From Ophelia neglecta (taxonomy: Eukaryota), in assembly GCA_965285935.1 (NCBI GenBank), contig OZ260662.1:5208001-5272000 (forward strand): a stretch of DNA of 64,000 nucleotides, in the 5' to 3' direction. The notes under the pieces were generated by a model. It searched no databases. It was not told the origin of the DNA and saw only the letters and a list, made by a program, of their open reading frames with translations. The position numbers and the translations under genes are program-made. The stretch's first letter is position 1. Each line of letters begins with the position of its first letter. Shown piece by piece: positions 27,771 to 56,600 of this stretch.

Positions 27771-27797
27771 TCAGCTGTTCCAATCCATAACATTTTC

Positions 27798-28674: not shown

Positions 28675-28845
28675 ATGGGCAACAAGCGATGTGCTCATGG
28701 CACTTGTAACAGTGACAGCAGGTATGGCCCAGAGGGGAAGAGACCAAGACCAGATATGGTGGGAGTAGAGTTTATACCATTTTGTAAACCTTCTGTTGAT
28801 GAAGCAAAATGCAAAACATATCGTGAGACTCTGAGACAAAGGTAA
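28675..28845 (+). pseudogene. THAP zinc-finger N-terminal fragment, probably from a DNA transposon (copy at 38331-38501)
   Basis: MGNKRCAHGTCNSDSRY...VEFIPFCKP...KCKT after acceptor TTTATTTATTTACAG; Cx4C plus F-x-F-(P) pattern of THAP; truncated by the LINE fragment; below the ORF-track length cutoff. Confidence 0.65.
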
Positions 28846-30814: not shown

Positions 30815-31030
30815 ATGCTTTATACCTATTGATCAAACCCATGGGTACCTTCTGGTTTTACCGTGCCTATTGGTCAAACCAGTAGGTACCTCTTAGGTAT
30901 ACCTAAAAGGTTCCCATTCATCAAACCTATAGGTACCTTTCAGGTATACCTAATAGGTATCTAATTTTCAAACCAAAAGGTACCATTCAGTTATTTCTAA
31001 AGGTACGTTTTATACCACGGGCGCGGTTTT
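30815..31030. repeat. GGTACC/TACCTA-rich palindromic repeat array (copy at ~41170-41390), probably a transposon end
   Basis: Repeated TCAAACC...AGGTACCT...AGGTATACCT motifs. Confidence 0.55.
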
Positions 31031-33401
31031 ACGGTAGCAGAAGCTTGTAGAAGCTTGCAAGTTCTATTATGAATACACTAAACCCCCAGGCCACGAATTA
31101 CCAATAAATCGATTCAAAGTCTTCAATGAGCATAAGTTGTACGTTCAACAAATATTAATATTTTGAACTCAAATCTAACCACCTTTTTTGAGGAGTTTAG
31201 TCCAAGGACACCACACTTAGATTGTAACAGCATCCCCATGGTAACATGGTATGAACAAAAAATAGACGAAAATCAAAAATTATACCAAATAATCCATACT
31301 TTTCATATTAAATGCTCTATTTAACTGTAATGGTTCCGTGTCAGACCAAGCGACCACTCAAATTATGGTTGTAACTAATTTATTGGTTGTCATGGTTACT
31401 GCAGAAAAATTGAATAAAACGCATTTTAATGACGTTTTCGAGCTATGTTATATTTGATTAACAATAGAAATGATTTCAAGAAAAAAAAATTATTGGTTAA
31501 ATAGTTATGGTATCCTGAATTTTCCATTGAGGCAAGAAATATTGGCAAAATGCTTTTTCGTCATTAGCATGCCATAACCGGTACATTTCTGCTGACGCTA
31601 ATTTCACACAAATACTGCATTTTGTGCAAAACAAAACAAAACTCATAATTTGCAACACGGTTTGGGACCGAAAGTGGGATCCGTTTTGGATATAGTGTCA
31701 AGCTAATTGTAGCATTTTTTCTGAAATCTTCTAGGCACCAAATGAAAATGGCTGGTCCCTATAAGCCCCTGGTTTCCTCCTCATACTTGCTTAACTATTT
31801 TCGACATCCGCATTCTCTGCTACTGCGGGAATTTCCCTTTTGGTGAGGAGAATTTCCCCTCCCCTATCATGGGAATTTCTCGACCTGATGGTTAATATTT
31901 ATTTTAAAGGAGAAAAATGCCCTTTAATAGGTAGCGCCTTTCCTAATCAAAGGAGCTTTTCCTCTTAATAAATATATATATATATAATTCTCAGTTTATG
32001 ATTAATGTTCTAAACATTTAAAGGGTTCGGATAATAAAAATAACTACATAAAAATTATAAGCCCGGATAAACATGAAAGGAAATATATACTCACAATATA
32101 TGAGCCAAAAAAGCACAATTTAAGCCAGAGTACAAATCAAACGATGTGTCCAAAAGGCTTATATCAAAATGTATGCTACCTGAGGCACATTACATCCTAT
32201 TTCATCCATATTTAATCATTTTAGATTGTTGATTTCATTAAAGATAAGAAGTAGTGAAAGAAAGCACAAACATTTCAGTCGCCTGACGGGGGGTAACTGA
32301 AAGGACAGATATTTGCTTATGGCATTAACCAGGCACGTAAGAATAATCTGCCTACAGGAAGGAAAAATGACGCAGGTCGGACTTTTCGCATCCATATGCG
32401 CTTTCATTGTGACTTTTTATGAAGTTGTTTAGGTCTCAAATATCATGGTTATATTTGGAACGTTTAATGTCTGCGTTCTCGTTACAGACAAAATGAACAT
32501 TCACTCAACCTGTTAAGTTTTTTCGATCTGTTGAGTGTGGATAATGACACCGTAATAATGAATCTAGCAAGGTTTATTCATAATGCATTTAACTACAAGA
32601 AGCAATAACCTGAAAATTGTATTACACACAGATACATTTATGTATGTTTTCATAGTTAAGTTACCCGGCTCGTCATGCGGATTTTGGATTTTAGGAGCCA
32701 AACTTCAGAACGGTGCTGATTCTTATGATACTTGACTATTTTAACAAGTGTCAATTCATACGAGACAATTAGGAATCATCTTTTGAAAAATAATCATGCA
32801 CCTTGCAGGGAACACTCGAATAATAATTTTAGGTGAAATTGTTTTTTCCAAGAAAACATTTAGACAGTGAACTAGTTGAAAATTCATAAAAAAGAAATTT
32901 ACAACCCAACTTATTAAGATTATTTAGAAATAGAGACTTAATTCCTAACATTACATTATAACCACTTGTTACATTCTGTAGGAATGTGCAATGTTCTCAG
33001 TTTTGGTCTCGTAAACTAAATAAATGCCGTATGGCTATACCTTAATTTGTAAGTGAGTCGACTCTTCGTATGGTCATTATTATTGTACATTGCAGTATAG
33101 ATTTGATAACTAGTACAAAGCTCCTAAAAGCTTATGAGTGATAGGGATTATTATCAATATAAATCTGTTGCTTACACTAAACGAATGATTTATAGTTAGG
33201 GTTTAAAGTCACTAGGTCATTTGAGGCAAGTTATGTATAAGCCTCTTTATATGGTTGATTATTAAATAATAGTGTAAGGAAGATTCCCTCACCAGGGAAG
33301 ATCTTAAAACATCATGTCTTGAATAATTTCCCCAGTGGCCACAGGGGATCCACATGAATGTCCCAGGCGATAGCCCCGTGGGGATCAGTAGTACCTAAGG
33401 T

Positions 33402-36068
33402 TTACATGGGGTCCTCCTGAATGTCCCTGGGGATAGTCCCCTGGGGGTCAGGGTTACCCCCGAAGGTTGTGAGGGGATTCACATGAATGTCGCTGGCGTT
33501 AGCCCCCTGTGGTTCAGGGTTATCTCCTAGGGTTGTCATGGGGTTCACATGAATGTCGCTGGCGATAGCCCCTGGGGGACCAGGGATAACACCTAGGGTG
33601 TCCTGGGGGTCCCCAAGTACAAATCGTAGTTTGGTAATAAGGTTAGTATCTTCTGCTATCAGGAAGGGAATCTTCCTCAGAACCCGCCTCTGTTTTCTAG
33701 TGAATGCTCTGAGATTGACATGATCAAGTATCACTGGGACGATAGGCAGTGATTTGTTTCCGAGGATCCTCTCCTCTATGACAGCGTTGATCTCGAACCC
33801 ACACCACTCGCTCTGAGCCGAGTTGGGAGACAGGACCAAAATGACCGCCCTGCTGCACTCCATGGACCTCATCACATTGTCAACAATGTCCAATCCGGGA
33901 ATAAAGTCTCTATCATTGACACACAGAGAGTAGGGTGGGTCACAGTCCTGCTCCAGTCCAGGGAGAATGGTTTGGAACACCCATCGATAGTCATCACCAC
34001 AGTAACAGACAAAGGCGTCGTACCGAAACTGGCCCTGTTCTCGTCGTCTGCGGCAGAGTCTTAAACCAGTGACAATGAAAAGCCACAGTTGGAGGGAGAA
34101 ACTCTGTCTTTTCATAATGATAATAAGGGCCAGCGTGAAAAAGACTCCTAGCACGGTAGAGGTGACAATTTTTACTACCATGGTACGATGAATATCGGCT
34201 GAACATTGATAAGGGTAAGGTCCCCCAATGTATTTATCACATCTACTCATGGGAAAGACTGACAATATGTCCTGCTGTCTCCTGCTTGACAGCCAAAAAG
34301 TGTCCAGACTACATTCGATGGCAAGTGTGTTTCTGACCCCCATTGACTTTAGCCAGGTGATGAACTCCTCACAGCCACAGTGGAGAGGGTTGTGCTGGAG
34401 GTAGAGGGTGAAGGTGTCCAGCACCCGGTCCAGTGTCTCCACCTCCCTCCGTCCAGCCAGCGGTATGTACTCTATACAGTTAAATACCAGTCCTACTTCC
34501 ACTTGGTTACCGGTCGCAATACGACTCCCCCGCATTTGTACCATTGGAAGCAAACTATCACTTGTCAAGTGATTTAACCACAAATCAATCACTTTCACAT
34601 TGTGAAATGATGCAGTCATCAGTTCAGCTGGGAACAGCCTCAGGTGGGTTTCACGTAAGGAGATGTAAATCAGGTGTGAACCCAAAATGTTTTGCGGAGT
34701 TGCAATGTTTAAAAGGTCGTTATTGCCCATTTCAAAAACTAATAAGTTTTGAAGGTAAAGTAATTCCTTTGGGACGTGGGTAAAGCGGTTGCTTGAGACA
34801 GAGAGGATTTTTAAAAATTTCAGATTCTGGTTAGCTACACTATGTAAAGATTTCAGATTAGAACCACGCAAAAGTAAGTATTCCAGCTGCTTACAGTTAG
34901 CAAAGAGGTTTTCCGGTAAATATTCCAGTGGGTTGTTTGATAAATCCAAGTGCATAACGTTAGTAGCAAACGACAGATTAGATATACGAGATCCATGGAG
35001 GTCATTGTGGGCTAGGTCAATGCGATCCAGCCTTTCCATTCCTTCAACATGATCAATAGATTTTATAGAGTTATAGTTCAGGTACACTTCTATCGGGTAA
35101 TATTGTTTATATAACCTGTAGTACACTGTGTTCCACATTGACTTATCTCCGTATCTCAGTGGCGAGTCTGGACGGAAATCAGTGAGTCTAGTCCAGTAAT
35201 TACTCCTCATTACTTCCATAGCAACCTCAATTTCATTTTTCTTTTTAAGTTGCCTAGTCTTTGAAATTTTCCACAGTGGAAACATCTTCAAACCACCGTT
35301 AACCAGGTAAAGTTCGGTAATCTCTCCAAATCCTCTTAAGTCTGAAAAGGCTGATACATTCGTATCAGAAAAACCCAGCTGTATAACATGAGGAAACAAC
35401 TCCGTTGGAAACGTTTGGATGGACTTCTGATACTCTATGGCATTTTTATATGTTTTCATCTGGCAAATGATACACACACTGGCATAAGGTTCCTGGTAGA
35501 TGAGGCCAGAGAGAAGCAGGTCTACAGTACTAAATCCATTTTGGGAATCAGTGGTCGACCTAATGTAGATAAGCCGTGTTTTGTTACAAGCAGAGTTATG
35601 AGAGAGTGAAATCGACTCGGAAACATTGGTCTTCAGCTGCACATCGTTTAAAGTGATTACAGGTGGAGCGGTTAGTTTTGAAAGTTGGAAAATGTCTGCC
35701 CAACCGACGGCACATTTCCCTATGTCAAGTTCTTGTATATGTTTCCCACTGCATTGCATTAAGGTTTCTAAAGGCTGTGACACATGTATGTGGTAGCCTG
35801 GTAAATCACACTCAATTTGAAGTTTCCAAGGCCACGAGCTGTTGAGTTGTTTAAATCCATGACATATTCTGCGATAATGTTCTGTTGTTACCTCACAGAG
35901 GTTTGTGTCAGTCCTGTTTTTTGAGGCGATGATAACCATTTTGATCCACTCACGACTAGCAACACTGAAGGCTATTTGTGCTCGCTGGTAATAAAATAGA
36001 CTCTCAGAAAACTGGCTCCATCCAGAAGATATGAGGAGGGCAGCACTCAGAAACCATAGCCACGACAT
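33402..36068 (-). CDS. Toll-like receptor, intronless, 888 aa (copy 2)
   Basis: Same signal-LRR-LRRCT-TM-TIR architecture; TIR almost identical to copy 1. Confidence 0.97.
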   Translation of the reverse strand: MSWLWFLSAALLISSGWSQFSESLFYYQRAQIAFSVASREWIKMVIIASKNRTDTNLCEVTTEHYRRICHGFKQLNSSWPWKLQIECDLPGYHIHVSQPLETLMQCSGKHIQELDIGKCAVGWADIFQLSKLTAPPVITLNDVQLKTNVSESISLSHNSACNKTRLIYIRSTTDSQNGFSTVDLLLSGLIYQEPYASVCIICQMKTYKNAIEYQKSIQTFPTELFPHVIQLGFSDTNVSAFSDLRGFGEITELYLVNGGLKMFPLWKISKTRQLKKKNEIEVAMEVMRSNYWTRLTDFRPDSPLRYGDKSMWNTVYYRLYKQYYPIEVYLNYNSIKSIDHVEGMERLDRIDLAHNDLHGSRISNLSFATNVMHLDLSNNPLEYLPENLFANCKQLEYLLLRGSNLKSLHSVANQNLKFLKILSVSSNRFTHVPKELLYLQNLLVFEMGNNDLLNIATPQNILGSHLIYISLRETHLRLFPAELMTASFHNVKVIDLWLNHLTSDSLLPMVQMRGSRIATGNQVEVGLVFNCIEYIPLAGRREVETLDRVLDTFTLYLQHNPLHCGCEEFITWLKSMGVRNTLAIECSLDTFWLSSRRQQDILSVFPMSRCDKYIGGPYPYQCSADIHRTMVVKIVTSTVLGVFFTLALIIIMKRQSFSLQLWLFIVTGLRLCRRRREQGQFRYDAFVCYCGDDYRWVFQTILPGLEQDCDPPYSLCVNDRDFIPGLDIVDNVMRSMECSRAVILVLSPNSAQSEWCGFEINAVIEERILGNKSLPIVPVILDHVNLRAFTRKQRRVLRKIPFLIAEDTNLITKLRFVLGDPQDTLGVIPGPPGAIASDIHVNPMTTLGDNPEPQGANASDIHVNPLTTFGGNPDPQGTIPRDIQEDPM

Positions 36069-38474
36069 GGTGCTATTCTAGTCTCCTGACTTCTGTCAAG
36101 GCTTGTAGCAGTTAAAGCTGAGACTTATATATGGGTATTGGCAGACAAGAGGGAGAGAATTGACACTCTTATAACACCACTGTGTACACCGGTATCATGT
36201 CACAGTGTAATACGGGTCCGGTTCTCGACTGGTTGCTGGCCTCTAACAGTTAAAGCCGAGATTTATATATAGATATTGCCAGACAAACAGGTCCTGTATC
36301 AGTAATATGAAACGTGTATGTAGATAGTGCCAGACGGACACGATTTGTAGCTATACCGTATTTAGAACTAATAGAAGACCCGCTTTATCATTTTTTATGT
36401 GTAGAAAAGAATGAACTTTTGAGACAAAATTGGGGATGTGTTTGGCAGTGGAATAATAAAGTTCATTTGTACGACTTCAATGATAAATTCCCAAACTAAG
36501 CTATGGTCCAGCCCTCTTCTAAAACTACTGGTGTGTACTTTATCAGATATGCATCTCCTATAAGATCATTTACGGTAATATGTTAAATCACGGCTATGAT
36601 TCACTGGTGTTATACTGTAAACCAAAAAGGGTTCGTGAGCCGAACATATTTGCCATTATCGAAAAAATTCATGAAAATTTCAATGACCAGTAGCCATACT
36701 TCCAGAGAAATCACTCTACATTACTCTTGGACGAAAATTCAGGTAAAAAATATGCGGTGGAATATAGTTAACATAAATTGCCTGATCGCAGAAATGTGTA
36801 CACATATCACCCAGTTGACAGTATAGACTTCCCTTTCCCGTGGTGTCGATCCCTCTTCTTTCGGTTCCCATTTTACAGCCCTCCTTCTACCGCCATCTTT
36901 CAGACTTTTTTCAGTCCCTTACTTTGAATCAGAATAGGGCCTACTTCTTCTAACTCATAATTATAGGAAGTAGTTAGGCTCTCCCCGTACCCCAGTCACC
37001 AGTCAGGCTGTCACCATATTAATATGTATATTAGATTGGGCTTACTCACAGGTACTCAACAGTATGGCGATATGGGTCTACTAGGGTTAGTCCACAGATA
37101 CCTTACAATATGGATGTATGGTTGTACATGGGTAAATCCACAGATACCTGACAGTATGTTGATTTGAGTGTACAAGGGTTAATCTACAGAGAGCTTACAG
37201 TTTGTACAGGTTTTAAATCCATAACATCAATCTTAAAGTGAAATCTTGAAAATGTGTCCATGTGTTAATCCACCGATACCTAACAGTACTGTGATATGTG
37301 TGTCCATGGGGTAATTTACAGGTATCTGACAGTATGATGATGTGGGTTTGCATGGGTAATCTACAGATACCTCAAATATGGTGATGTGGGTGTACATGGG
37401 TAATCTATAGATACCTTACAGTATGTTCAGCTGTTCCAATCCATAACATATTCTATAGTGAAACGTGCCTTAAAGACCACCTCTATAGTCAGACAGCCTG
37501 TCAATTCCGATCGTTAATATTATTATTAATATATGACCATAATATACACTTTTAATCTAAATAACCTGTATCAGACCGCCTCTATAATCAGGCAAGGTTT
37601 CGCTGTATACCAACTAAACAAGCAGCACAAAGTGCATGAGACCATGAATCTCGTTAACCGTGTGTCGCTTTACATTTCACCCCACAGCTAACATCTTACC
37701 CTGCTCACAGTGGCAGGGTAACAAACAGGATCATTCTCGCGAGCTGGACATTTTACATAAATCATATGTCACTATATATTTTCAGCATGAAGGTTCTTCG
37801 CAGAGCACAGATACGGTGATTTCCTGTTGAGAGTAGGTCTACTTAGCCTACTAAGTGATTTTCATTTAGAGCGCCATCTGGAGGGCGTTGCTGCGCAACC
37901 TGACAGGGTGGTGCAAACATTCGCTTCGGCCATACCAGATTAGCGTGAATGCAATGCAGGTGCGGCTTGAAATCGTTCGGAATTTAACACAGTTTTTAGT
38001 CAAGTAGGTATCATTTATTAAACTATTCTTGATATAATATGGTCAGATATCTTATAGTCATGACATAACTTAGGCCTGAGAGCCGTTTTGGCTTAAAGAA
38101 CGGAGATTTCATGCGGATTTTATAGTAGCCGTTCGAAGGTAGCGCGGGCGATATTATGGTATATTTCCATTACGTCGTGCCTAGTAATCAACCGGCGGTG
38201 TCGGAAAATGCTATTTCTTTGCTACAAAATTCAGTATTGTTCATTTTAAGATTAATTGGCTATGACTTCACATTACTTCGCTTCTGAATGTATCCAAATT
38301 ATATGATTTATTTATTTACAGTCGTCAGAAATGGGCAACAAGCGATGTGCTCATGGCACTTGTAACAGTGACAGCAGGTATGGCCCAGAGGGGAAGAGAC
38401 CAAGACCAGATATGGTGGGAGTAGAGTTTATACCATTTTGTAAACCTTCTGTTGATGAAGCAAAATGCAAAACA

Positions 38475-39135
38475 TATCGTGAGACTCTGAGACAAAGGTA
38501 ATTTTATCAGATAGATAATCGGGCGCTAGGCCGTATATACATTTAAAGGAAAGAAGTGATGTAAAATAGTCCCGTCGATGCCTAATTGTCATAATACCGA
38601 GATTCAAAGAAGGCCAGATGCGCTCGTATTTCAAGCATAAATCCAATTATACACCGAGCAGCTCTATTTTGCATGCTCTGTACCCTACCAACATATGACT
38701 CTGTGGAATAACCCCAGATAGATATACAAAAACAAAATGCGGTTGTATTATAGATTTATAAATTGTTACAAGTGTTTCACGGCTCACCTTGTGGCGCAAC
38801 CTACGCAAAACACCAATCTTAGGGGACACCCTTTGACATAGAAGGTTAATATGAGATTCCCAACTAAGAGTTTCATCGACAGTGCATCCGAGATATTAAG
38901 TTCTACGCATACATTCCACAGGGCTATCCTGAATGTAAATTGTAAGATCATTAAACCAGTCCACTTTATAAGGAGTACCAATTTTCATCACACAGCATTT
39001 TGTTGGGTTGACTGTTAGGTGAATGGTATCAAACCATCTTAATAAATTGTTAGCATGACACTGTAGAAATTTTTCGACTTAATTGTCTCCCATTGTATAG
39101 TGTTATCAGTGTAATCAGCAAAAAAGTTACAAAAA
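38475..39135 (-). mobile_element. Degenerate CR1/L2-type LINE RT fragment truncating the TLR paralog (only ~28820-28975 remains in unit 1)
   Basis: CNFFADYT (YADDT-like), LQCHANNLLRWFDTIHLTVNPTKCCVM, KIGVLRRL...IYKSIIQPHF, KCIYGLAPDYL in different frames. Confidence 0.8.
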
Positions 39136-39843
39136 TCTATCAGAAAAAACCAGCATTTTAACATTAGGAAACCTTTCCCTCGGAAATGTTTGGATGGTTT
39201 TCTGATACACTAGAGCATTTTTATAAGTTTTCATCTGACAAGGGATGCACACATTGGCAAACGGTTCATGGTAAATGAGCCCTTCCATAAGTAGAAAGTC
39301 AGTATGAAATCCATATGGGTAATCGGTAGTCGACCATATACTGATGGTACTTGTTTTGTTGCAAGCAGAGTTATTAAAGAGGGAAATCTGTCCTAAATCA
39401 CTAGTCGTCAGCTGCACATCTTCTAAAACGATATTAGTGGGAGCAGCGAATAGAGCAAGTTGGAAAATTTCTGTCCAACCGACGGCACATTTCTTAATGA
39501 ACAGTGATTGTATATGTTTCCCACTGCATTGAACTACTGTTTCTAAAGGCTGTGACACATGTATGTGAAAGCCTAGTAGATCACACACGATGTGAAGTGG
39601 CGAAGGCCATGAGCTGTTCAGTTGTTTAAATCCGCGACATATGCTGCGTTGATGTTCTATTGTTACCTCACAGAAGTTTGTATCAATCCTGTTCGTAGGG
39701 GCTTTGATTGTCATTTGTATCCATTCAACGGTTGCAGCAGTGAAGGGTTCGGGCTGGCGCTCGTAACTAATTTGACTCTCACAAACATGGCTTTGACCAA
39801 TAGACATGAGGAGGGCAGCACTCAGAAGCCATAGCCACGACAT
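39127..39843 (-). CDS. Truncated TLR paralog B: signal peptide + TLR N-terminus only (238 aa; putative secreted product or pseudogene)
   Basis: Two aa differences from paralog A over the shared part; TLR homology ends at NVKMLVFSD and the stop lies a few codons into LINE-derived sequence. Confidence 0.6.
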   Translation of the reverse strand: MSWLWLLSAALLMSIGQSHVCESQISYERQPEPFTAATVEWIQMTIKAPTNRIDTNFCEVTIEHQRSICRGFKQLNSSWPSPLHIVCDLLGFHIHVSQPLETVVQCSGKHIQSLFIKKCAVGWTEIFQLALFAAPTNIVLEDVQLTTSDLGQISLFNNSACNKTSTISIWSTTDYPYGFHTDFLLMEGLIYHEPFANVCIPCQMKTYKNALVYQKTIQTFPRERFPNVKMLVFSDRFL

Positions 39844-39956
39844 GGCGATATTGTATTCTTCCTGACTTTTGTGTAGGCTTGTAACAGTTAAAGCGGAAAT
39901 TTATGCGTAGGTATTGCCAGACAAACAGGACCTGCATGAATAATAGGAGACTTATA

Positions 39957-40134
39957 CAGTGATACCTGTGAATTAAGACCACCCAAGGGACTTGAAAATG
40001 CTGGTCTGATTTCAGAGGTGGTCTGTTTAGAAAGGTTATTTAACATTGAAAGTATACAGAATGGTCGTCATATTAGTGGTCTGAATTTACAGGTGGTCTG
40101 ATTATAGAGGTGGTCTTTAAGGCAGGTTTCACTG
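39957..40134. mobile_element. Tc1/mariner (pogo/Tigger-like) MITE, TA TSD
   Basis: TA|CAGTGATACCTG...AAGACCACC ... GGTGGTCTTTAAGGCAGGTTTCACTG|TA; empty site CTTATACATAAAC at ~29773. Confidence 0.9.
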
Positions 40135-42112
40135 TACATAAACATTGTCAGACGGATGCGATTTGTGTCTATACCGTATTCGATCTAATATCATTTTTCA
40201 GGTCTAGAAATAACTGACCTTTTTGGCTAACTCGGGGAACTGCGTCTAAAGTTTTAATGGTAAATGTTTTAGAATAAGCTTTGGTCCACCTTATAATAAA
40301 ACAAAGGGTGCATACTTTATTAGATACCTTTCTTCTATTAGATTATTTCGGTAATATGAAAAATCAGTGCTAAGTTTCCGTGGTATTATACTGTGAACCA
40401 GAAAATATTCGCGAACTGGACATTTTCGCGATTATTACATTCTCAAATTTATTTCTCAAGAAAACATCCCGTAGCTATCGTCCCTCGTTTATGTTAGATA
40501 CATCTGAATCTTTTCATCTACTCAGGGACAATATTACATGTTGAACAAAATTCCCCTGGTTGGGAAAATGGGTTGATATACACCTTACACAGCCCACAGC
40601 CCGGATGTGGCAGGCTAATGATACGCCACTTCGAATTTCATAGAGGCTGAAGTACATACTAGATATTGTAATGGGATGGAATTAGGTCTGTGTCTCGCCT
40701 GTTTATATCAAACCGGTACTTGAACATAAGTATCAATGAATGGTATTAAATATGGTCCGGGGTTGGAGGTGGGGGGGGGGGGTATTCGTAGGATAGGCCC
40801 GAACTTTCAAGCAAGTCGGAACGAGAACAAAGTTCGGCGGCAAGAGCAAAGAGGAGCATGACTAAATCCCAGTGACCGAAAAGCTCTTAGTATCTCATCA
40901 CTAAAGATGCCAGTAATGGGTCGCCTCAGGCTCTGGTCCCCAGTATATGTGGCCCACTCTTACTCAAGGCTTGTCATCTAGGTTTAACCAGTCATAATAT
41001 GAACATAGATTACAAGTCGTCATCCGGAGATTCAGACTAAAACACTCGGGACCAATATCAACTGTAATATGAAGAGTCTGTACCTGCATTATTAAAATAA
41101 TCTAACAGTGTTTACTAAATATGCCTTTTCAATTTGTAACAAAGGGTGCTTAAATAGATATAATGTATGCTTTATACCTATTGATCAAACCCATGGGTAC
41201 CTTCTGGTTTTACCGTGCCTATTGGTCAAACCAGTAGGTACCTCTTAGGTATACCTAAAAGGTTCCCATTCATCAAACCTATAGGTACCTTTCAGGTATA
41301 CCTAATAGGTATCTAATTTTCAAACCAAAAGGTACCATTCAGTTATTTCTAAAGGTACGTTTTATACCACGGGCGCGGTTTTACGGTAGCAGAAGCTTGT
41401 AGAAGCTTGCAAGTTCTATTATTAATACACTAAACCCCCAGGCCACGAATTACCAATAAATCGATTCAAAGTCTTCAATGAGCATAAGTTGTACGTTCAA
41501 CAAATATTAATATTTTGAACTCAAATCTAACCACCTTTTTTGAGGAGTTTAGTCCAAGGACACCACACTTAGATTGTGGCAGCATCCCCATGGTAACATG
41601 GTATGAACAAAAAATAGACGAAAATCAAAAATAATACCAAATAATCCATACTTTTCATATCAAATGCTCTATGTTAACTTTAATGGTTCTGTGTCAGACC
41701 AAGCGATCACTCAAATTTTTGATTGGAACCAGTTTTATTGGATGTCATGGTTACTACAGAAAAATTGAATAAAACGCATTTTAATAACGTTTGTTTTCGA
41801 GCTATGTCATATTTGATCAACAATAGAAATGTAAACTGCGCGATGAGATTAAAATAATGAATCTGAATATGATACTCCAGCGTTATTAAAACCTTCCTCA
41901 AGATTTCAAGAAATATTTTTTATTGGTCAAATAGTTATGGTATTCTGAATTTTCCATTGAGGCAAGAAATATTGCCAAAATGCTTTTTCGTCATTAGCAT
42001 GCCATAACCGGGACATGTCTGTTGGCGCTAATTTGACACAAGTACAAAACAAAACGAAACTCATAATTTGCAACACGGTTTTGGACCGACAATGGGATCC
42101 TTTTTGGATATA

Positions 42113-42283
42113 CAGTGAAAGCTGTGAATTAAGACAACCCTGGGGACTGGAAAATGCTGGTCTGATTTTGGAGGTGGTCTGTTAAGAGAGGTCATTAAAC
42201 ATTGAAAGTATACAGCATGGTCCTCATATTAGTTGTCTAAATTGACAGGTGGTCTGATTATAGAGGTGGTCCTTGAAGCACTG
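42113..42283. mobile_element. Same-family MITE, TA TSD
   Basis: TA|CAGTGAAAGCTGTGAATTAAGAC ... CACTG|TA; empty site GGATATAGTGTC at ~31689. Confidence 0.85.
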
Positions 42284-44017
42284 TAGTGTCAAGCTAATTC
42301 TAGCTTTTTTTCTGTTATCTTCTAGGCAGCAAATGAAAATGGCTGGTGCCTATAAGCCCCTGGTTTTCTCCTCATCCTTGCTTATCTATTTTCGACATCC
42401 GAATTCTCTGCTACTGGGGAAATTTTCCTTCGGTGAAGAGAATTTCCCCTCCCCTATCAAGGGGATTTCTCGACCTGATAGTTAATTTCTTTAAAGGAGA
42501 AAAATGCCCTTTAATAGGTAGCGCCTTTCCTATTCAAAGGAGCTTTTCCTCTTAATAAATATACATATATAATTCTCAGTTTATGATCATTGGTCTAAAC
42601 ATTTAAAGGGTTCGGATCATAAAAATAACCACGTAAAAATTATAAGCCCGGATAAACATGAAAGGAAATATATACTCACAATATATGAGCCAAAAAAGCA
42701 CAATTTAAGCCAGAGTACAAATCAAACGATGTTTTAAAAAGGCTTATATCAAAATATATGCTACCTGAGGCAAATTACAAATTATTTCATCCATATTTAA
42801 TCATTTTAGATTGTTGATTTCATTAAAGATAACAAGTAGTGTACGAAAGCACAAACATTTCAGTCGCCTGACGGGGGGCAACAGAAACCACTTTTCAATC
42901 CTCCTACAGAGATTTGCTTATGGCATAAGCCAGGCACGTGAGAATAATCTGCCTACAGGAAGGAAAAATGACACATGTCTGCCTTTTCGCATCAATATGC
43001 GTTTTCACTGTGATTTTTATGAAGTTGTTTAGGTCTCAAATATATCATGGTTATATTTGGAACGTTTAATTTCTGCGTTCTTGTTACCATGGCAAGTCAT
43101 TAAAAGAAATCAACATTCATTCAACCTGTTAGGTTTTTTCGATCTGTTGAGTGTGGATAATGACAACGTAATACAGAACCTAGCTAGGTTTATTCATAAT
43201 ACATTTAATTACAAGAAACAATAAACTGAAAATTGTATTACACACTGATTCATTTATGTATGTTTTCATAGCTAAGTGACCCGGCTCGTCGTGCGGATTT
43301 TGGATTTTACGGGCCAACCTTCAGAACGGTGCTGATTCTTGTGAAACTTGACTATTTTAACAAGTGTTAATTCATCAGACACAATTAGGAATCATCTTTT
43401 GAAAAATAATCATGCACCTTGCAGGGAACACTCGAATAATAATTTTAGGTGAAATTGTTTTTTCCAAGAAAACATTTAGACAGTGAACTAGTTGGAAATT
43501 CATAAAAAAGAAATTTACAACCCAACTTATTAAGATTATTTAGAAATAGAGACTTAATTCCTAACATTACATTATAACCACTTGTTACATTCTGTAGGAA
43601 TGTGCAATGTTCTCAGTTTTGGTCTCGTAAACTAAATAAATGCCGTATGGCTATACCTTAATTTGTAAGTGAGTCGACTCTTCGTATGGTCATTATTATT
43701 GTACATTGCAGTATAGATTTGATAACTAGTACAAAGCTCCTAAAAGCTTATTAGTGATAGGGATTATTATCAATATAAATCTTATGCTTACACTAAACGA
43801 ATGATATAAAGTGAGGGTTTAAAGTCACTAGGTCATTTGAGGCAAGTTATGTATAAGCCTCTTTATATGGTTTATTATTAAATAATAGTATAAGGAAGAT
43901 TCCCTCACCAGGGAAGATCTTAAAACATCATGTCTTGAATAATTTCCCCAGTGGCCACAGGGGATCCACATGAATGTCCCAGGCGATAGCCCCGTGGGGA
44001 TCAGTAGTACCTAAGGT

Positions 44018-46684
44018 TTACATGGGGTCCAACTGAATGTCCCTGGGGATAGTCCCCTGGGGGTCAGGGTTACCCCCGAAGGTTGTGAGGGGATTCACAT
44101 GAATGTCGCTGGCGTTAGCCCCCTGTGGTTCAGGGTTATCTCCTAGGGTTGTCATGGGGTTCACATGAATGTCGCTGGCGATAGCCCCTGGGGGACCAGG
44201 GATAACACCTAGGGTGTCCTGGGGGTCCCCAAGTACAAATCGTAGTTTGGTAATAAAGTTAGTATCTTCTGCTATCAGGAAGGGAATCTTCCTCAGAACC
44301 CGCCTCTGTTTTCTAGTGAATGCTCTGAGATTGACATGATCAAGTATCACTGGGACGATAGGCAGTGATTTGTTTCCGATGATCCTCTCCTCTATGACAG
44401 CGTTGATCTCGAACCCACACCACTCGCTCTGAGCCGAGTTGGGAGACAGGACCAAAATGACCGCCCTGCTGCACTCCATGGACCTCATCACATTGTCAGC
44501 AATGTCCAATCCGGGAATAAAGTCTCTATCATTGACACACAGAGAGTAGGGTGGGTCACAGTCCTGCTCCAGTCCAGGGAGAATGGTTTGGAACACCCAT
44601 CGATAGTCATCACCACAGTAACAGACAAAGGCGTCGTACCGAAACTGGCCCTGTTCTCGTCGTCTGCGGCAGAGTCTTAAACCAGTGACAATGAAAAGCC
44701 ACAGTTGGAGGGAGAAACTCTGTCTTTTCATAATGATAATAAGGGCCAGCGTGAAAAAGACTCCTAGCACGGTAGAGGTGACAATTTTTACTACCATGGT
44801 ACGATGAATATCGGCTGAACATTGATAAGGGTAGGGTCCCCCAATGTATTTGTCACATCTACTCATGGGAAAGACTGACAATATGTCCTGCTGTCTGCTG
44901 CCTGACAACCAAAAAGTGTCCAGACTACATTTGATGGCAAGTGTGTTTCTGACCCCCATTGACTTCAGCCAGGTGATGAACTCCTCACAGCCACAGTGGA
45001 GAGGGTTGTGATGGAGGTAGAGGATGAAGGTGTCCAGCACCCGGTCCAGTGTCTCCACCTCCCGCTGTCCAGCCAGTGGGATGTACTCTATACAGTTAAA
45101 CATCAGTTCTATATCCCCTTGCTTACCGGCACCAATACGACTCCCCCGCATTTGTACCATTGGAAGCAAACTATCACTTGTCAGTTCATTTAACCACAAA
45201 CCGATCACTTTCACATTGTGAAATGATGCGGTCATCAGTTCAGCTGGGAACAGCCTCAGGTGGGTGTCACGTAAGGAGATGTACATCAGGTGTGAACCCA
45301 AAATATTTTGCGGAACTGCAATGTTTAAAAGGTCGTTATTGCCCATTTCAAAAACTAATAAGTTTTGAAGGGAAAGTAATTCCTTTGGGACGTGGGTAAA
45401 GCGGTTGCTTGAGACAAAGAGACTTTTTAAAATTTTAAGATTCTGGTTGGCTACACTATGTAAAGATTTCAGATTAGAACCACGCAAATATAAGTATTCC
45501 AGCTGCTTACACTTAGCAAAGAGGTTTTCAGGTAAATATTCCAGAGGGTTGTATGACAAATCCAGGTGCATAACATTAGTAGCAAACGACAGATTAGATA
45601 TACGAGATCCATGGAGGTCGTTGTGGGCTAGGTCAATGCGATCCAGCCTTTCAATTCCTTCAACATGACCTATAGAGTTTATAGAGTTATAGTCCAGGTA
45701 CACTTCTATCAGGAAATATTGTTTATGTAACCGGTAGTAGCCTGTGTTCCACATTGGATTATCTCTGTATCTCAGTGGCGAGTCTGGACGGGAATCAGTG
45801 AGTCTGGCCCCGTAATTACTCATCATTACTGCCATAGCATCCTCAATTTCAAATTTCTCTTTAAGTTGCCTATTCTTTGATATTTTCCATAGTGGAAACA
45901 TCTTCAATCCAGTGTTAACCAGGGAAAGTTCGTTAATCTCTCCAAATCCTCTTAAGTCTGAAAACGCTGATACATTCGTATCAGAAAAACCCAGCTGTAT
46001 AACATGAGGAAACAACTCCGTTGGAAACGTTTGGATGGACTTCTGATACTCTATGGCATTTTTATATGTTTTCATCTGGCAAGGGATACACACACTGGCA
46101 TAAGGTTCCTGGTAGATGAGCCCTGAGCGAAGCAGGTCTACAGTATTAAATCCATTTGGGGAATCAATGGTCGACCTAATGTAGATAAGCCGTGTTTTGT
46201 TACAAGCAGAGTTATGAGAGAGTGAAATCGACTCGGAAACATTGGTCTTCAGCTGCACATCGTTTAAAGTGATTACAGTTGGATAGGTAAGTTTTGAAAG
46301 TTGGAAAATGTCTGCCCAACCGACGGCACATTTCCCTATGTAAAGTACTTGTATATGTTTCCCACTGCATTGCATTAAGGTTTCTAAAGGCTGTGACACA
46401 TGTATGAGATAGCCTGGTAAATCACACTCAATGTGAAGTCTCGAAGGCCATGAGCTGTTGAGTTGTTTAAATCCATGACATATTCTGCGATAATGTTCTG
46501 TTGTTACCTCACAGAGGTTTGTGTCAGTCCTGTTCCTAGGGGCTATGATAACCATTTTGATCCACTCACGACTAGCAACACTGAAGGCTATTTGTGCTCG
46601 CTGGTAATAAAATATACTATCACAAAACTGGCTCCATCCAGAAGATATGAGGAGGGCAGCGCTCAGAAACCATAGCCACGACAT
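44018..46684 (-). CDS. Toll-like receptor, intronless, 888 aa (copy 3)
   Basis: Same architecture as copies 1 and 2. Confidence 0.97.
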   Translation of the reverse strand: MSWLWFLSAALLISSGWSQFCDSIFYYQRAQIAFSVASREWIKMVIIAPRNRTDTNLCEVTTEHYRRICHGFKQLNSSWPSRLHIECDLPGYLIHVSQPLETLMQCSGKHIQVLYIGKCAVGWADIFQLSKLTYPTVITLNDVQLKTNVSESISLSHNSACNKTRLIYIRSTIDSPNGFNTVDLLRSGLIYQEPYASVCIPCQMKTYKNAIEYQKSIQTFPTELFPHVIQLGFSDTNVSAFSDLRGFGEINELSLVNTGLKMFPLWKISKNRQLKEKFEIEDAMAVMMSNYGARLTDSRPDSPLRYRDNPMWNTGYYRLHKQYFLIEVYLDYNSINSIGHVEGIERLDRIDLAHNDLHGSRISNLSFATNVMHLDLSYNPLEYLPENLFAKCKQLEYLYLRGSNLKSLHSVANQNLKILKSLFVSSNRFTHVPKELLSLQNLLVFEMGNNDLLNIAVPQNILGSHLMYISLRDTHLRLFPAELMTASFHNVKVIGLWLNELTSDSLLPMVQMRGSRIGAGKQGDIELMFNCIEYIPLAGQREVETLDRVLDTFILYLHHNPLHCGCEEFITWLKSMGVRNTLAIKCSLDTFWLSGSRQQDILSVFPMSRCDKYIGGPYPYQCSADIHRTMVVKIVTSTVLGVFFTLALIIIMKRQSFSLQLWLFIVTGLRLCRRRREQGQFRYDAFVCYCGDDYRWVFQTILPGLEQDCDPPYSLCVNDRDFIPGLDIADNVMRSMECSRAVILVLSPNSAQSEWCGFEINAVIEERIIGNKSLPIVPVILDHVNLRAFTRKQRRVLRKIPFLIAEDTNFITKLRFVLGDPQDTLGVIPGPPGAIASDIHVNPMTTLGDNPEPQGANASDIHVNPLTTFGGNPDPQGTIPRDIQLDPM

Positions 46685-48084
46685 GGTGCTATTCTAGTCT
46701 CCTGACTTCTGTCAACGCTTGTAGCAGTTAAAGCTGAGACTTGTGTATGGGTATTGGCAGACAAGAGGGAGAGAATTGACACTCTTATAACACCACTGTG
46801 TACACCGGTATCATGTCAGAGTGTAATACGGGTCCGGTTCTCGACTGGTTGCTGGCCTCTAACAGTTAAAGCTGAGATTTATATATAGATATTGCCAGAC
46901 AAACAGGACCTGTATCAGTAATATGAAACGTGTATGTAGATAGTGCCAGACGGACACGATTTGTAGCTATACCGTATTTAGAACTAATAGAAGACTCACT
47001 TTATCATTTTTATGTGTAGAAAAGAATGAACTTTTGAGACAAAATTGGGAATGTGTTTAATAGTGGAATAGTAAAGTTCATTTGTACGATTTTAATGATA
47101 AAATCCCAAACTAAGCTATGGTCCAGCCCTCTTTTAAAACTACTGGTGTGTACTATCAGATATGCATCTCCTATTAGATCATTTACGGTAATATGTTAAA
47201 TTAGGGCTATGATTCACTGGTGTTATACTGTAAACCAAAAAAGTGTTCGTGAGCCGAAAATTTTCGCCATTATCGAAAAATATAGTAAACATAATTTCCC
47301 TGATCGCAGAAATGTGTACACATATTACACAGTTGACAGTATAGACTTCCCTTTCCTGAGGTGTCGATATATAGATCTTTCGGGTCCCATTTTTACAGCC
47401 CTTCTTCTATCGCCATCTTTCAGACTTTTTTCCGTCCCTTACTTTGACTCAGAATAGGGCCTACTTCTTCTAACTCAAAATTATAGGAAGTAGTTAGGCT
47501 CTCCCCGTCCCCCAGTCACCAGTCAGGCTGTCACCATATTAATATGTATATTAGATTGGGCTTACTCACAGGTACTCAACAGTATGGCGATATGGGTCTA
47601 CATGGGTTAATCCACAGATACCTTACAATATGGATGTATGGTTGTACATGGGTTAATCTACAGATACCTGACAGTATGGTGATTGAGGTATACATGGGTT
47701 AAACTACAGATACCTGACAGTATGTTGATTTGAGTGTACATAGGTTAATCTACAGATAACTTACAGTTTGTACAGGTTTTAAATACATAGCATAAATCTT
47801 AAAGTGAAATCTGCCGTAAAGACCTTCTATAATAAGGACACCTGTCACATCGGATCATTTATATGAAGAAAATTATAAATACTTTACTTACAATATACGT
47901 TGTATAGATGGGTCGCCGAATTTATCGCTTTTCATGAGTTTGCAATTGCCGCTTGCAGTGTAACGCGTACGTCACGGCATTGGATACTGTTGTTAGGGAG
48001 ATTCCGTTCGGATGCCACTCCGCGCGTCGCCAATTGGCTGGACTACTGTTATGACGTCTCAGACTAGATTTTTCCGGGAATATA

Positions 48085-50137: not shown

Positions 50138-53100
50138 GCGTGTTTTCTTCAGAATGAACCGATATCTTTTTGAAAGCTCCATTAATATAAAGTTTGCTTG
50201 GTTTGGTATTATAAGATTACACCAGTGAAATAATTTTGAGAATGGAACCCAGTGCTGAGGCTACTTAACGCCACATTTCCAATGAAAATGGAGCTTTCAG
50301 GCTTGTCATAGCCTAAATATTTTATCCACGTACCTACATCAGTTTGAGCTTTTATTGACATAAAACTTTTGTGTTTTTGAAGACATTTTGTAGCGGTCAT
50401 GAAGTGGTTATGGGGTGTTCTGAGACCAAATGGGCACGCTAGGTCAGGCAAATATGTTAGTATATTTCCCAAGATGGACTCGAATGTGTGTATGATATGG
50501 GAAGGATATATAGTTTAAAATATATTGATAAACACAAAGAATAAAGAAACAGTAAACGTGTTTGTTTACTTTACTATTCACTGATTATAGTTTGAACAAT
50601 GTGACTATCTTAAAGGTATCAAGCTATCTTAAAGGTATGCAAAGCGGGACACATGTTCGGGTAACCCAGTAAAGTAGTTAACCTTCATAACCTTCATACC
50701 TTGATGTTTTCTGTGGCGCACCGCCGCCCCAAAGGCTTAATTCTATAGTGAAACTCTTGAATTGGAAACAGGGTTATCCATTTTATGTTTTGCGTAAACG
50801 TACCAGTTGCATTAAGCTGGTCGTAAACTATTGAACGCAGTTGGCATTTTTGAGCATCATTTGTGCGGCGGACATTTTGCGAAAGGGTGACGCGCATTAT
50901 CTACATCCGGTGAAAAGCCTTGAAGTTGACAACTATCCACTGGTTGATGTTTTACAAATGATATAGTCACTTGCCACTTCGAGACACGAAAAACTCTATG
51001 TCCTTGTGTGATAAAGAAAATAAAATTAACTTTTTTCCAAGCTTTTTAACTTCTTGAGGAGCTCACAAAAAATTTCATTTAATATGCAAATCATAAATGA
51101 GACAACAGTATATAAGCTGACTGGCGCCTTTTTGACGAACAATACTGTCTTAAACTTATTAATTTAAATATAATATACTGTCCTACACTTCAAAGCACAA
51201 AATATGCAAACCTTATATTTTGCAAGCCTCTGTTTATTGCAAATTGTACTATTGAACCTAGAAGGAGTGTTCATTAGTTAAACCCATGTAGCTGTTCGCA
51301 TTGGAGCTGGCAGCCATCTAAGTTTCGTGTTGGCCCTTTCGTTGCGCTGATATTTTGGGCACAGTCTAAAAAGACTTATCAAATGTGTGTCTCATCGCAA
51401 TACCAGGCTCTAATTATAAAGACTGTTTGAATATTTTTGATTGTTTGAGTCGTTTTGTGTCACCATTATACATTATCAATACATGTTAACATGCTATTGA
51501 TTAAACGCGGAGGTGCGGAATATATGCGGAGGCGGAGGTCATGATTATTTCTAAGTGGCATGAAGCGAAGAATCGTCAGCAAGGAAATGGTTAGGACAGA
51601 GGGTTAATTTTAGGGTTAGGGGAAGGGTTAGGGACAGGTTTGATAGGTCTAGTGCTCTGTTCTAATTTCTGGATTCACCTCCGCAAGGCTCCGTATTTTG
51701 AGAGCTGCACACGGACGCCAATTATTGCCCAGGCCTAACACACTAAATGTAGCTGAACAAAAAATTAATAGATATGTCTATTAATAATTTTATTTAACAG
51801 ATGAATAAATATATAAGCAAGTGGATTCTCATAAAAGAAATTAAGAATACATGGTAAATCTCATTAAGATTCAACTCAACACGCACAGCACTAAACCTTG
51901 AACATATAGTAATTATGTACACAGTGAATAAAAAAATATGAAAAAATGAAGCCTTGCAAACAGTGAATGTTTGGTGTTCTTGGGCAATACATGTCAATTT
52001 GACAGCACCTGTACCCCAAGGATCCTGCCCCACCCAGCACATACATCGCATTCATATACTAGCGTGTATATACCGTTCAGGGTGGGACCCCCAGTTGTCA
52101 TAAGCACCCGTGATAAATAAAGCATTTTGTAACTACACACCAAGAAGGCAGTGCATTTTCGGCACACATAACAGCTAAAATTGAAAAGTCGTTATTAAAG
52201 TAAAGCCTATTTTTTTACGGCCCATAAAATTTGTAGCTTCAGAGCCTCAATGAATTCATAACAAAAAGATTTCGTGTTTCAGATGTGTCTACAATAGGCA
52301 CTACAGTGTACATATTTGTCGCTCACCTTTTAATTTCTCTGTTTTTTTAACCCCCTCGTGAAATTCGCGAAACAAAGTATACGGGAAATATCAAGGTTTT
52401 GCATTATATCAATCGAGAAGTGCCTTTTCAGTTTAGTTTTACTTCAGGCCTGTCCACGAATTCGAATTGATAACAACATCAATAATATAAATTTTAAGAG
52501 AAAAACATTGGGGCATGGCATTTGTTCTTATTGCGATTAATTCAATACCGTTATCATTTCTGATATTATAAACATGACAATTTACATTAGATGCCAAACA
52601 CATAACTATGTATTCAGGGAGGTCACCAACAAGGTCCTCATTGGGTAATCTAATGCATTGCTTTAAACTGTTAAGTTTTAGGATTCCCTAGGTCTACCAA
52701 GTACGTGAAATATAACATGCCTTATCAATAATACGAATACACCCTTTTGTTTAGTAACTAATCTACTATTGTTATGGTTCTTTTATCTCATCAGCAAGCC
52801 ATATGATTGGGTTGAATCAAAGCAGAATATACTATTTCAAGGACATTGGTCTAGGCTTTAAAGCCATGTTTAATTAAACTAAAAGGCTACATCTCAAAGA
52901 ACCACTAATAACGCTTCCCTTGGAGGTCTCCAGCCGAGCGCCGACTCCAAGGAAAGCTTTCGCTTGTTCCCCGTCTTTTCCAGACAACAGGTGCCTGGCT
53001 TTGTTTGGTCAGGAACACCAACTTCTCTTAGGTCCTTTGCTCTATAGTGAAGAAGATACACGTATATCTGATTATTTTGGATAAAAAAAATAGGTCAATA

Positions 53101-53221
53101 CCATCATTGATACAGGTAAAAGGAAAATACGAAAAATCAGATAAAAAAAGGTATAAACCTACCTCGTTCTGGTTCTTGGATTTACTCGTCATGTCTTGGG
53201 TGGATGCTAGTTTAACCATTA

Positions 53222-53706
53222 TCACCATGACGTTCCTGTGTTACCATGACAACCCACTATTACCATGACAATCCTGTATTACCATGAAAATCCTCTGTTA
53301 CCATAACAATCTTCTGTTATCATGAAAATCCTCGATTATCACAATATGCCTCTGTCACCAAGACAATCCTCTCTTACTTTGATAATCATCTGTTACCATA
53401 CAAGTCCTCTATTACCATGGCAATGCTCTGTTACCATAACAATCTTCTGTTAACATGACAATCCTCTATTAATATTTTATGTCTCTATTACCATAACAAT
53501 CCTCTGTTACCATGACAATCCCCCATTGCCATTACAATCCTCTATTTCCATGACAATCCTCTATTACCATAACAATCTTCTAATACCATTACAATCCTCT
53601 ATTACCATGAAAAGCATCCGCTACCATGATTATCTTCTGCTACCAAGACAATTCTCTGTTATCATGACAATCCTCCGTTATCATGACAAAACGGTGTTAT
53701 CATGAT
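53222..53706. repeat. Degenerate ~20-bp tandem repeat (CCATGACAATCCTCTRTTA), >20 copies
   Basis: Direct inspection. Confidence 0.9.
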
Positions 53707-54544
53707 GATCATAGTCCTCCTGATTTACACATATCTTGCCAGTTACCACAGTTTAGTTTATATACTTCCATTATCATGACAAATCCCAACTGTCATTTAT
53801 TTATTACGTACAATTATGACTGTTCTCACACTCACGAGGAACCTTATTAGTCATTAGAAACAAGTGGCACCCTCTATGGGAGGTAACTTGCATCGTTAGA
53901 TGTCATGAAAGCCATCAAGTACCGACCTCTTTCGGATGAAACTTGTATTACTGGAAGTCATGGATACCGAACGGCAGCGCCCTCTTTAGGAAAGAATTTG
54001 ATTGGAGGTCATGGAATGCGAGAGGATCGCGCCGTATTGAGTGATATCCCGTAATCAGTAATCTTGGGCACCCCCCCATGCAGGGTATTTTATCACTAAG
54101 TGTTTCTGAAGTGTACTCCACTAGCGCCCTCTTTGGGGAGACCTGAGTTAGTGTTTTCTAGTCCTCCCAGAATTCACCTGGTGGTGAGTGATATAAGGAC
54201 ATAAAGCTTCCTTCACTGTCAGTACTGCTATCTAGGTCCTGGTAGCCAGGTTGCCATAGCGATGACCTGGCATCAGTTCCGGGGTCACCGGGTCGGAGAA
54301 ACTCGAGGGCAACACAACCTTTACTGTATCTGAAAGCAGTAAGATAATATGAATAGGTAGAACCTAGATGGAGAACTCATTGGGTCCAGATTCTATATGT
54401 ATAAATAACACATTTAATCTGCCGATGTGAAGTTTTGATGTTTCCTAATAATAATGCAAGAGAACCAACTGAATGTCAGTGTTCCACAATTCTATGAAAC
54501 AATATGCCTCGGTATGATAAATCCTTGGATTATACGCGTGACAA

Positions 54545-54600
54545 GCCGTGGCCGAGTGCTTAGACGTTTGGCTTGGCATTAAAGGTGTGGGTTCGACTTT
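54545..54600 (+). mobile_element. tRNA-like SINE head fragment
   Basis: GCCGTGGCCGAGTGCTTAG ... GGGTTCGACT (A and B boxes) without a complete acceptor stem. Confidence 0.5.
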
Positions 54601-55521
54601 TTGTTGATAAACAAAATAACCCTGTATAATCCGTGGCGTCATTTGTACTGTCCAATAAAGCCATAAATATGTTTTCCCTTGCGTTTGTCAAACGACTTGA
54701 GATACAGGAAAACTTCAAGGAATAATGCTAGGCACAAAATTTGGTTGCATGAAAACCTACTCGACGCGAGCTACGGGAGCCCAGCGCGCGCTGGGGTCAC
54801 ATGAAAGCCAGCGTCATTTTGACAACAGTCCATCTCTACACACGACTTCTTGAACAGTATTGATAATCTTTGCCAAACGTTTTCTCTCAAAAAGGGTTAA
54901 AAATATTTTAACCCGACACTTTCCTTATCCCGAAGCTTGCAGAGACCTACACAGTTCATAACCCCGAGACTGATTCTCAACCCACCCTAATCCGAGGGTT
55001 AATGTCGTTTACTGTATACGGATTGGGTTTAATTATGAGGGAAAAAAGATGTTTTGGAGGAGGCAAAAAAAAATGTGTTGAAAAAAAATTCTCACTCCCC
55101 CCCCCCCCCCCCTGCATTATCAAATGGTCGGCCCCTTAGAAGTAACGAACACATTTGGGCGATAATGGAGATTATTCATAGGAATATTGAAATGGTAAAA
55201 TTGTGCACGCAATAGGGCCAGTCGGATATGTTTCATACTGCTGACCAACAACCACTTTTCTTACCTCCAAAGCTGATTGCAATTAAAAGGCAGTGGTAAG
55301 GCTGGGATAAGTGGGGCTACTTTCAGCTGTTCATATGGGAATTTAACATGGGAATGATGTTTTAAAAGCCCTTACTTAGTGCACACAAAAATGGCACCTC
55401 GCAGGGGTAATTTTACATTAAATAAATGTATTGAAGTTTATATGAAATGACGTTCATATTTGATGATTCTTTTTACTTATTACCCAAAGAGTTCTGGGTA
55501 AAAAGACAAATCCCAAGGGTT

Positions 55522-55553
<32 letters not shown>

Positions 55554-56600
55554 CATATGGACTAGGTTTGGGTTAGGGTGAAGGGTTAAGGATTGAATGT
55601 TTCAGTTAGGTTAGTAGCTTAAACCTACCCCTAACCCCTCGGATCTCGTATCAGGTTTACCAGTATGCCCTTCCGTGGAGAGAGATGCTCTGGTGAACGA
55701 AAATGACAAAAAACAGTTAAAACAACGGGCCTCCTTACCCTGGTAATCTTTGATGTTTGCCGTGGTCCCCACGACGACGGTCTGGGGTGTCCAACATTAT
55801 GGCCATTGGTGTTGCCATGATAATATGGCGCCACCTTTTGGTGTTTTTTTCTTACCAGCAGACTCAGGGAGCAGGTGATACCAGCCGGAGACGTCCTGGA
55901 GAGGAATTAGAACAGCATTAGTGTCAGGTCGGGTCAGTGTGTCTAATGAATCCTTAAATATAACTCTGCCTACAAACACCCCTTTTTCCCTAATCGCCCC
56001 CCCCCCCCCCTACATTATCAAATGGTTGGCCCCTAACGGCCGCTGTCCTTTCCATGTTAAACAAAACAGAACAACTCACAAGCGGCCAGCCCTATCATTA
56101 ACTTCATATGATCCCCAGCCGGGGTCTCCAGGAACGCTTACTGGTCATGTAAAAGGCATGGAAGCAGATGTTCATTGAATATGTATTGGACACACGACAG
56201 AAACCCGCACACAAACCTCAATTTGTTCTGAAGGCGACCTAATAACAGCTCGGGACGGGGTTCTAGGCTTAATATGTATTCGCGAACGGAAGTCTGGGTA
56301 AATGTTTCGATTCCCGCCAGTAGGGCAACCCATTGCTAATTGTGGCGGAGGTCTGGCGTCTTTTAACACTGATGAATTTAAAACTAAAATAAGATATGTG
56401 CCAGGCATATAGTTAAGGGAATTATTGAATGTATTTTGGGTCTTTATAGGTGTCGATCCAGCTCTCAGGCAATGTATAAAACGATTTATTCTCACTTAAA
56501 ATATGTAATAGTAAATAGGAGAACGCACAAATAAGGCTGTACTACACACAACTACATTTCTGTACAAACAGCCATTCGGTAGTGTTTATTACGGGATCTA

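Follow-up and report, generated by a model that had tools for sequence, protein, structure and literature searches.

Probable remains of a PsGEF-type and RGS gene pair on the minus strand of an Ophelia neglecta contig

The window analysed here is a 64,000-nt stretch of animal DNA from Ophelia neglecta (contig OZ260662.1, positions 5,208,001 to 5,272,000), with a GC content of about 40%. Between 52.9 and 55.9 kb, its minus strand probably carries what remains of a duplicated unit that is now dead and once comprised two genes, a short C2-PDZ gene of the PsGEF type and, after it on the same strand, an R4-type RGS gene; we give this reading a probability of about 0.58. The original prediction had described the interval as one decayed C2-PDZ-RGS3-like gene, made of five exon-like segments in the domain order of RGS3 and facing an intact plus-strand RGS gene across an array of TLR genes. 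All five stretches are present in the sequence, and for two of them, the end of the C2 domain and the counterpart of RGS exon 2, both the RGS3 order and the orientation towards the plus-strand gene were borne out.

Two exons recognised on the minus strand

Profiles built from database proteins were scored on both strands, with frame shifts allowed and with resampled DNA as the control. The segment at 55739..55895 of the minus strand, which starts with DVSGWYHLL and runs from a clean acceptor (55895) to a GT donor (55739), is a real homologue of the last exon of a C2 domain and is assigned to the PsGEF/RGS3 type. With the frameshift-tolerant profile it scored 82.0, where the highest scores of 20 resampled 64-kb strands were 30.0-45.5, and the exon ranked first of 1145 acceptors with the anchored protein profile. 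The original prediction had proposed a tblastn search of related proteins against the window, and the C2-end exon was matched in that search, with 65 matches from 150 representatives of C2/PDZ proteins and 58 from 81 PsGEF-like and RGS proteins. Its C2-end motif is identical to those of 12 annelid-type homologues at 9-13 of 21 positions, and these homologues share 10-16 of 21 positions among themselves.

As assembled, the exon measures 157 nt, with a run of seven A (A7) at 55844-55850 and a stop at 55799-55797; with six A (A6) it measures 156 nt and the frame is open. The A7 lesion is not fixed, as the contigs of all three runs read A6 (depth 67.8/95.3, 22.1/30.2 and 41.5/41.5). These runs, X1, X2 and X3, come from one sample of one study and may represent another haplotype of the assembled animal. 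One A of the run is missing from the contigs, so that the shift reflects either a slip of the assembly or a minor allele. The exon and its acceptor (55769-55962) also occur in a second version, with 17 differences in 193 bases, in X3 record 22 at a depth of 11; this is a divergent allele or another paralogue.

These features bear on the possibility that a truncated PsGEF paralogue is still alive and includes the C2 exon, with earlier exons past the 64 kb and a C2-only membrane-binding product, the PDZ and RGS pieces being dead and the A7 run a slip or a rare allele. The clean splice sites, the A6 of all three runs, the second version in X3 record 22 included, and a C2-end motif nearly as conserved as in working paralogues are what such a gene would display. 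It is nevertheless unlikely, given that every path stops within 88 codons even with A6, that no named C2-only family member was identified and that neither tblastn nor profiles found an earlier C2 exon above chance in the 8 kb upstream (56-64 kb). By eye, stretches near 57, 58.5 and 59.2 kb were promising as upstream C2 exons, and they scored at chance level.

The other well-supported segment, at 52894..53041 of the minus strand, is a decayed paralogue of exon 2 of the plus-strand RGS gene, with AKDLR at its start and SLESALGW near its end. The paralogy is real, and it appears only when the comparison is anchored at the acceptor. Anchored, the segment ranked second of 592 acceptors in the DNA comparison, behind the plus-strand exon itself (59.5 against 29.5 for the next; z 6.5), and second of 1145 with a protein profile from which the window was left out (28.3 against 16.8 for the next); unanchored, it scored at chance level (32.1; null median 32.2). 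The segment has the phase-2 acceptor of the plus-strand exon, runs 148 nt to its stop and carries three frame shifts (near 53025, 52988 and 52969) with a net effect of zero; paralogy, phase, length and compensating shifts had all been predicted, and all were borne out. The TGA at 52896-52894 occupies the place of the splice donor of the plus copy.

In codon register, the two RGS exons have 20 of 47 residues in common, 13 of them with a synonymous change, and identity by codon position is 26, 31 and 17 of 47 (about 52% of the DNA overall). The pattern of codon positions, together with the synonymous changes, marks the pair as an old duplicate. The first of the three shifts is also found in X1 record 1 and X3 record 17, the X1 and X3 contigs covering that site, and the alignment of X2 record 9 runs across the whole exon and contains 9 gap letters. 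Among lophotrochozoan RGS genes of the R4 type ('RGS3-like'), the plus-strand gene is an intact member and the minus-strand exon its paralogue, a pre-RGS exon that differs from the family in its three frame shifts, its lost donor and the missing exons of the RGS domain. Profile searches of the window agreed with the prediction that the minus strand holds neither RGS-domain exons, for which the best score was 44.6 (null 35.8-51.4), nor a PDZ core.

The stretch between the two exons

A probable exon for the end of a PDZ domain lies at 54158..54329 of the minus strand. It has a phase-2 acceptor and 56 open codons to a TAG at 54160-54158, which falls 44 aa past the PDZ domain, and it has an alternative donor at 54177; it is possibly the last exon of a short C2-PDZ gene. 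The original claim for this exon stood in part. In the correct register, the exon ranked 2-4 of 1145 and was the top one among the 18 acceptors between the two well-supported exons, where the chance probability is about 3-6% for 18 acceptors; in a register off by one, it ranked 90-226 in three tests. The unanchored score was not significant, and we regard the exon as borderline to probable. The best match of its tail had p 0.027 among 19 tried. A resemblance of its acidic stretch to the first exon of annelid RGS genes was rejected, as only one of seven comparisons reached p 0.026.

Two further segments had been predicted, and neither withstood scoring. The claimed start of the PDZ domain (55631..55689, minus strand), which ends with a TAG at 55633-55631, was not significant at 55689-55634, where its score is equalled by 0.5-2.5% of all positions. 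It enters high-copy DNA, in a bin with about 25-120 times the single-copy contig depth, and does not match the phase of the open C2 exon. Three X2 contigs depart from the window sequence at 55636 into letters that are not PDZ-like, and these probably represent other repeat copies. The SKSKN stretch (53163..53206, minus strand), which contains an ATG (53192) and has a weak acceptor and a good donor (53162), gave a profile score of 17.9, below the null range of 18.3-23.6, and a shuffle p of 0.16-0.67. It ends in phase 0, and the exon that follows requires phase 2.

The place expected for the PDZ core, 54330..55630, is a repeat-rich stretch in which no PDZ core was detected. It includes a poly-C/G tract at 55522-55554, and contig cover is thin at 55431-55579, partly since repeats were skipped. 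The contig depth of 55133-55430 is about a thousandfold that of single-copy DNA, and a 41-nt element with a G run, present at 55096-55136 and 55994-56034, occurs at very many places in the genome, as indicated by contig depth and loose ends. On the other side of the PDZ-end exon, a 19-bp minisatellite of about 25 copies occupies 53220..53705; its contig form is about 400 bases shorter, either a length variant or a collapsed repeat. Two AATAAA signals (53805 and 53801) and a run of TATA-like hexamers (53764) lie on the minus strand at 53759..53805, between the stop of the PDZ-end exon and the RGS remnant.

No reading frame joins these pieces: of 32 splice paths drawn through the candidate exons, not one arrives in the PDZ-end or RGS frame, whether the run is read as A7 or A6. 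Pfam recognised no domain in any minus-strand segment. The C2 domain is represented by its last exon alone, and no complete PDZ domain was found in the window, the core being absent, the start not significant and the end borderline. Exons for the RhoGEF (DH) and PH domains gave no match above 8 resampled controls, and short PsGEF forms also lack both domains.

With two of five segments passing on their own and high-copy DNA between them, the two exons might be unrelated fragments of a PsGEF and an RGS gene that repeats brought or left together, their order being coincidental and the PDZ pieces due to chance. We consider this very unlikely, as both fragments retain acceptor and phase, follow the vertebrate RGS3 order on a single strand with the best PDZ-end acceptor falling between them, and derive from genes that are neighbours elsewhere.

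A probable PsGEF-type gene followed by an RGS gene

PsGEF, the protostome-specific GEF represented in Drosophila by CG14045, was described by Higuchi et al. 2009 (PMC2684095). According to that paper, PsGEF carries no RGS domain, acts on Rac in the mushroom bodies of the fly and has a short C2-PDZ form, produced in the fly by early polyadenylation and also present in Daphnia. The same paper noted the resemblance of its C2-PDZ part to RGS3 and proposed that protostomes gained the RhoGEF domain, deuterostomes being without PsGEF; the word 'synteny' is absent from its text. PsGEF is again called protostome-specific in PMC5499878. Two deuterostome proteins are contrary to the protostome-only claim, P0250 of Ptychodera flava (C2-PDZ-RhoGEF) and P0322 of Patiria miniata (C2-PDZ); in our tree, the branch of the hemichordate Ptychodera C2-PDZ-RhoGEF protein is long and its position unsure.

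The proposal of a single C2-PDZ-RGS3 gene was not supported by the composition of these families. None of 44 homologues of the Owenia C2-PDZ-RhoGEF protein (446-1421 aa, among the best 7999 candidates) carries an RGS domain, so that the C2-PDZ half is a separate PsGEF gene in these invertebrates. The C2-PDZ part of shark RGS3, used as a query, found many C2-PDZ-RhoGEF or C2-PDZ proteins, and Pfam detected no RGS domain in any of the 30 selected. The invertebrate RGS proteins examined consist of the RGS domain only. Because the invertebrate C2-PDZ genes are separate and lack RGS, the remnants fit a short PsGEF gene and an RGS gene better than one RGS3. Compared with each other, shark RGS3 and Owenia PsGEF share 40% identity in C2-PDZ (E 4e-55) and 25% in the PH region (E 3e-8), with no match in the RhoGEF domain.

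The relic resembles PsGEF in having C2 and then PDZ sequence, with a C2-end exon that matches the family, and a short form of this kind is known. No RGS domain would be expected in its product, as there is no open path to the RGS exon and no RGS-domain exon on the minus strand. It differs from PsGEF in keeping only the C2 end and the probable PDZ end, and in having an RGS exon about 1.1 kb past the stop. A closer comparison is offered by annelid C2-PDZ paralogues without RhoGEF or RGS (Capitella CAPTEDRAFT_223263, 223264 and 228128; Ridgeia NP493_34g00017; Dimorphilus DgyrCDS4464/5; Lamellibrachia LSAT2_022000), which form one group (12 rows, 98/97) and have C2-PDZ, a short tail with a stop and several copies per genome. 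They end 18-361 aa past the PDZ domain, and no remnants of RGS exon 2 were found in the tails of RGS-less C2-PDZ proteins. These paralogues are open frames with a whole PDZ domain, whereas the window piece is too short to be placed in a tree. In annelids, PsGEF-like genes have become more numerous and their domains have been separated into C2-PDZ only and PDZ-RhoGEF only, with some of the genes on one scaffold (Capitella P0242, P0245, P0247 and P0407; Lamellibrachia P0232 and P0406; Paralvinella P0273 and P0401).

The long RGS3 of vertebrates (C2-PDZ-PH-like-RGS) has its C2 end, PDZ end and pre-RGS exon in the same order as the relic; it is one transcript, while the invertebrate halves searched are separate proteins and the halves in the window have no open path between them. 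That the relic was one fused C2-PDZ-RGS gene of this kind, decayed after an inverted duplication, is distinctly unlikely. Such a gene would account for the C2, PDZ-end and RGS exon 2 segments within 3 kb of one strand with no RhoGEF or PH exon between them, and for the alternative donor at 54177, which is in frame with SKSKN, a motif that immediately precedes the AKD exon of RGS proteins from shark and Lingula. Yet the SKSKN stretch has no support and does not match the phase of the RGS exon, the PDZ-end exon reaches its own stop, C2, PDZ and RGS do not occur in one frame in the window, and no fused invertebrate protein was seen among the 44 homologues or the 30 proteins selected for Pfam.

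Under the two-gene reading, the duplication would have placed two RGS copies face to face. The plus copy would have stayed intact and kept its RGS domain, while the RGS part of the minus copy would have decayed first and long ago, its donor turned into a stop and its domain exons lost. The PsGEF part would have decayed later, or may not be fully dead, because its C2-end motif is about as conserved as in working paralogues. Repeats would have replaced the PDZ core, and the TLR array would then have multiplied between the RGS copies; the locus would yield no working C2-PDZ or RGS protein.

Database records suggest that PsGEF-type and RGS genes lie side by side in several molluscs and one annelid. 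Among nine species with both genes in the search results, three have them as consecutive records: Owenia (CAH1786293/4 and CAH1786295), Batillaria (BaRGS_009882 and 009883) and Haliotis rufescens (LOC124151085 and LOC124151086). In Liolophura, Lineus and H. cracherodii, the two genes are on equal-sized contigs and their accessions are not consecutive.

Several points weigh against the two-gene reading. In Capitella, Ridgeia and Lamellibrachia, whose RGS proteins are nearest to that of the window, the C2-PDZ and RGS genes lie on different sub-megabase scaffolds, and the linkage in other species is read from record order and contigs, which give neither the strand nor the distance of the pair. 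A search of the 14.5 kb that precede the plus-strand RGS gene revealed no PsGEF exon. The step by which a short PsGEF gene ends at the TAG of the PDZ-end exon is soft because that exon is only borderline, and the poly(A) and TATA-like sites beyond it occur at chance level (0.9 and 1.5 per kb in the window). As the C2 exon is open in the contig sample, the PsGEF part may still be alive. Finally, the survey of Owenia homologues applies to its length range and candidate set.

The relic itself is an ordinary decayed duplicate, and its value is as a pointer to a PsGEF-RGS neighbourhood, with exons of PsGEF and RGS type on one strand in RGS3 order. The linkage suggests that the long vertebrate RGS3 is a fused PsGEF-RGS pair. 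We hold at even odds the fuller proposal that PsGEF and an R4-type RGS gene form an ancient head-to-tail pair, that vertebrate long RGS3 (C2-PDZ-PH-RGS) arose when this pair fused after loss of the RhoGEF domain, and that the relic, with its PDZ-end exon brought by deletion to about 1.1 kb from the RGS exon, captures a moment on the same route. If this is true, deuterostomes would neither have lost PsGEF nor have lacked it from the start, and the published history, with its gain of RhoGEF in protostomes, would be reversed. A Rac activator of mushroom-body axons in the fly would be tied to a neural-progenitor regulator of vertebrates, where PDZ-RGS3 is described as having a role in ephrin-B signalling (PMC2426945). 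It would also be a clean case of domain gain by the joining of adjacent genes, which is reported as the dominant route of domain gain in a paper whose portions cited here do not mention RGS (PMC2926785). A fusion or linkage of RGS3 and PsGEF was not found in the literature searched, which included few subscription journals and no supplements.

The plus-strand RGS gene and the TLR array

The intact RGS gene (14522-18991, plus strand) encodes a short R4-type protein of 180 aa in four exons (14522-14562, 14750-14898, 16874-17037 and 18803-18991), with a TATA-like site near 14360 on the same strand. Its product contains an RGS domain according to Pfam (E 9e-16 and 3e-10), and its closest match is a JGI protein with 70% identity over 166 columns, followed by Capitella and Ridgeia. 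In the RGS tree, the window protein falls in no starred group, and its affinity is probably annelid because its nearest neighbours are annelid. In Capitella, Ridgeia and P0001, the first exon is acidic and rich in lysine; that of the gene described here (14522-14562) is unlike it, and the preceding 14.5 kb yielded no exon of that acidic kind.

The inverted duplication of the original prediction retains the facing orientation of the two RGS copies as its sole basis; no flanking or intron DNA common to both was found, and their introns are unalignable. An inverted match between 19711-20405 and 60408-60766 (71-83%) was rejected as an edge of the duplication, since its position differs between the two RGS copies, 3' of one and 5' of the other, and is probably a dispersed repeat. 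A 122-codon open reading frame (ORF) at 20206-20574 overlaps one copy of this match.

The tandem TLR array (22421..47864, minus strand) contains three full single-exon LRR-TIR ORFs (23680-26418, 33402-36077 and 44018-46693), which share 89-92% amino-acid identity with the middle one and have a C-terminal tandem repeat of 22 residues (66 bp). Copies with the N-terminal part only (28772-29722 and 39127-39900, minus strand) alternate with the full genes and are 62% identical to them. The array units are 94-99% identical, against about 52% for the RGS exons, and the multiplication of the TLR genes is therefore probably younger than the RGS duplication, as the original prediction had it. Frameshifted ORFs at 708-5331 on the minus strand, with similar endonuclease-like ORFs at 48158-48839, presumably resemble a LINE element with endonuclease and reverse transcriptase.

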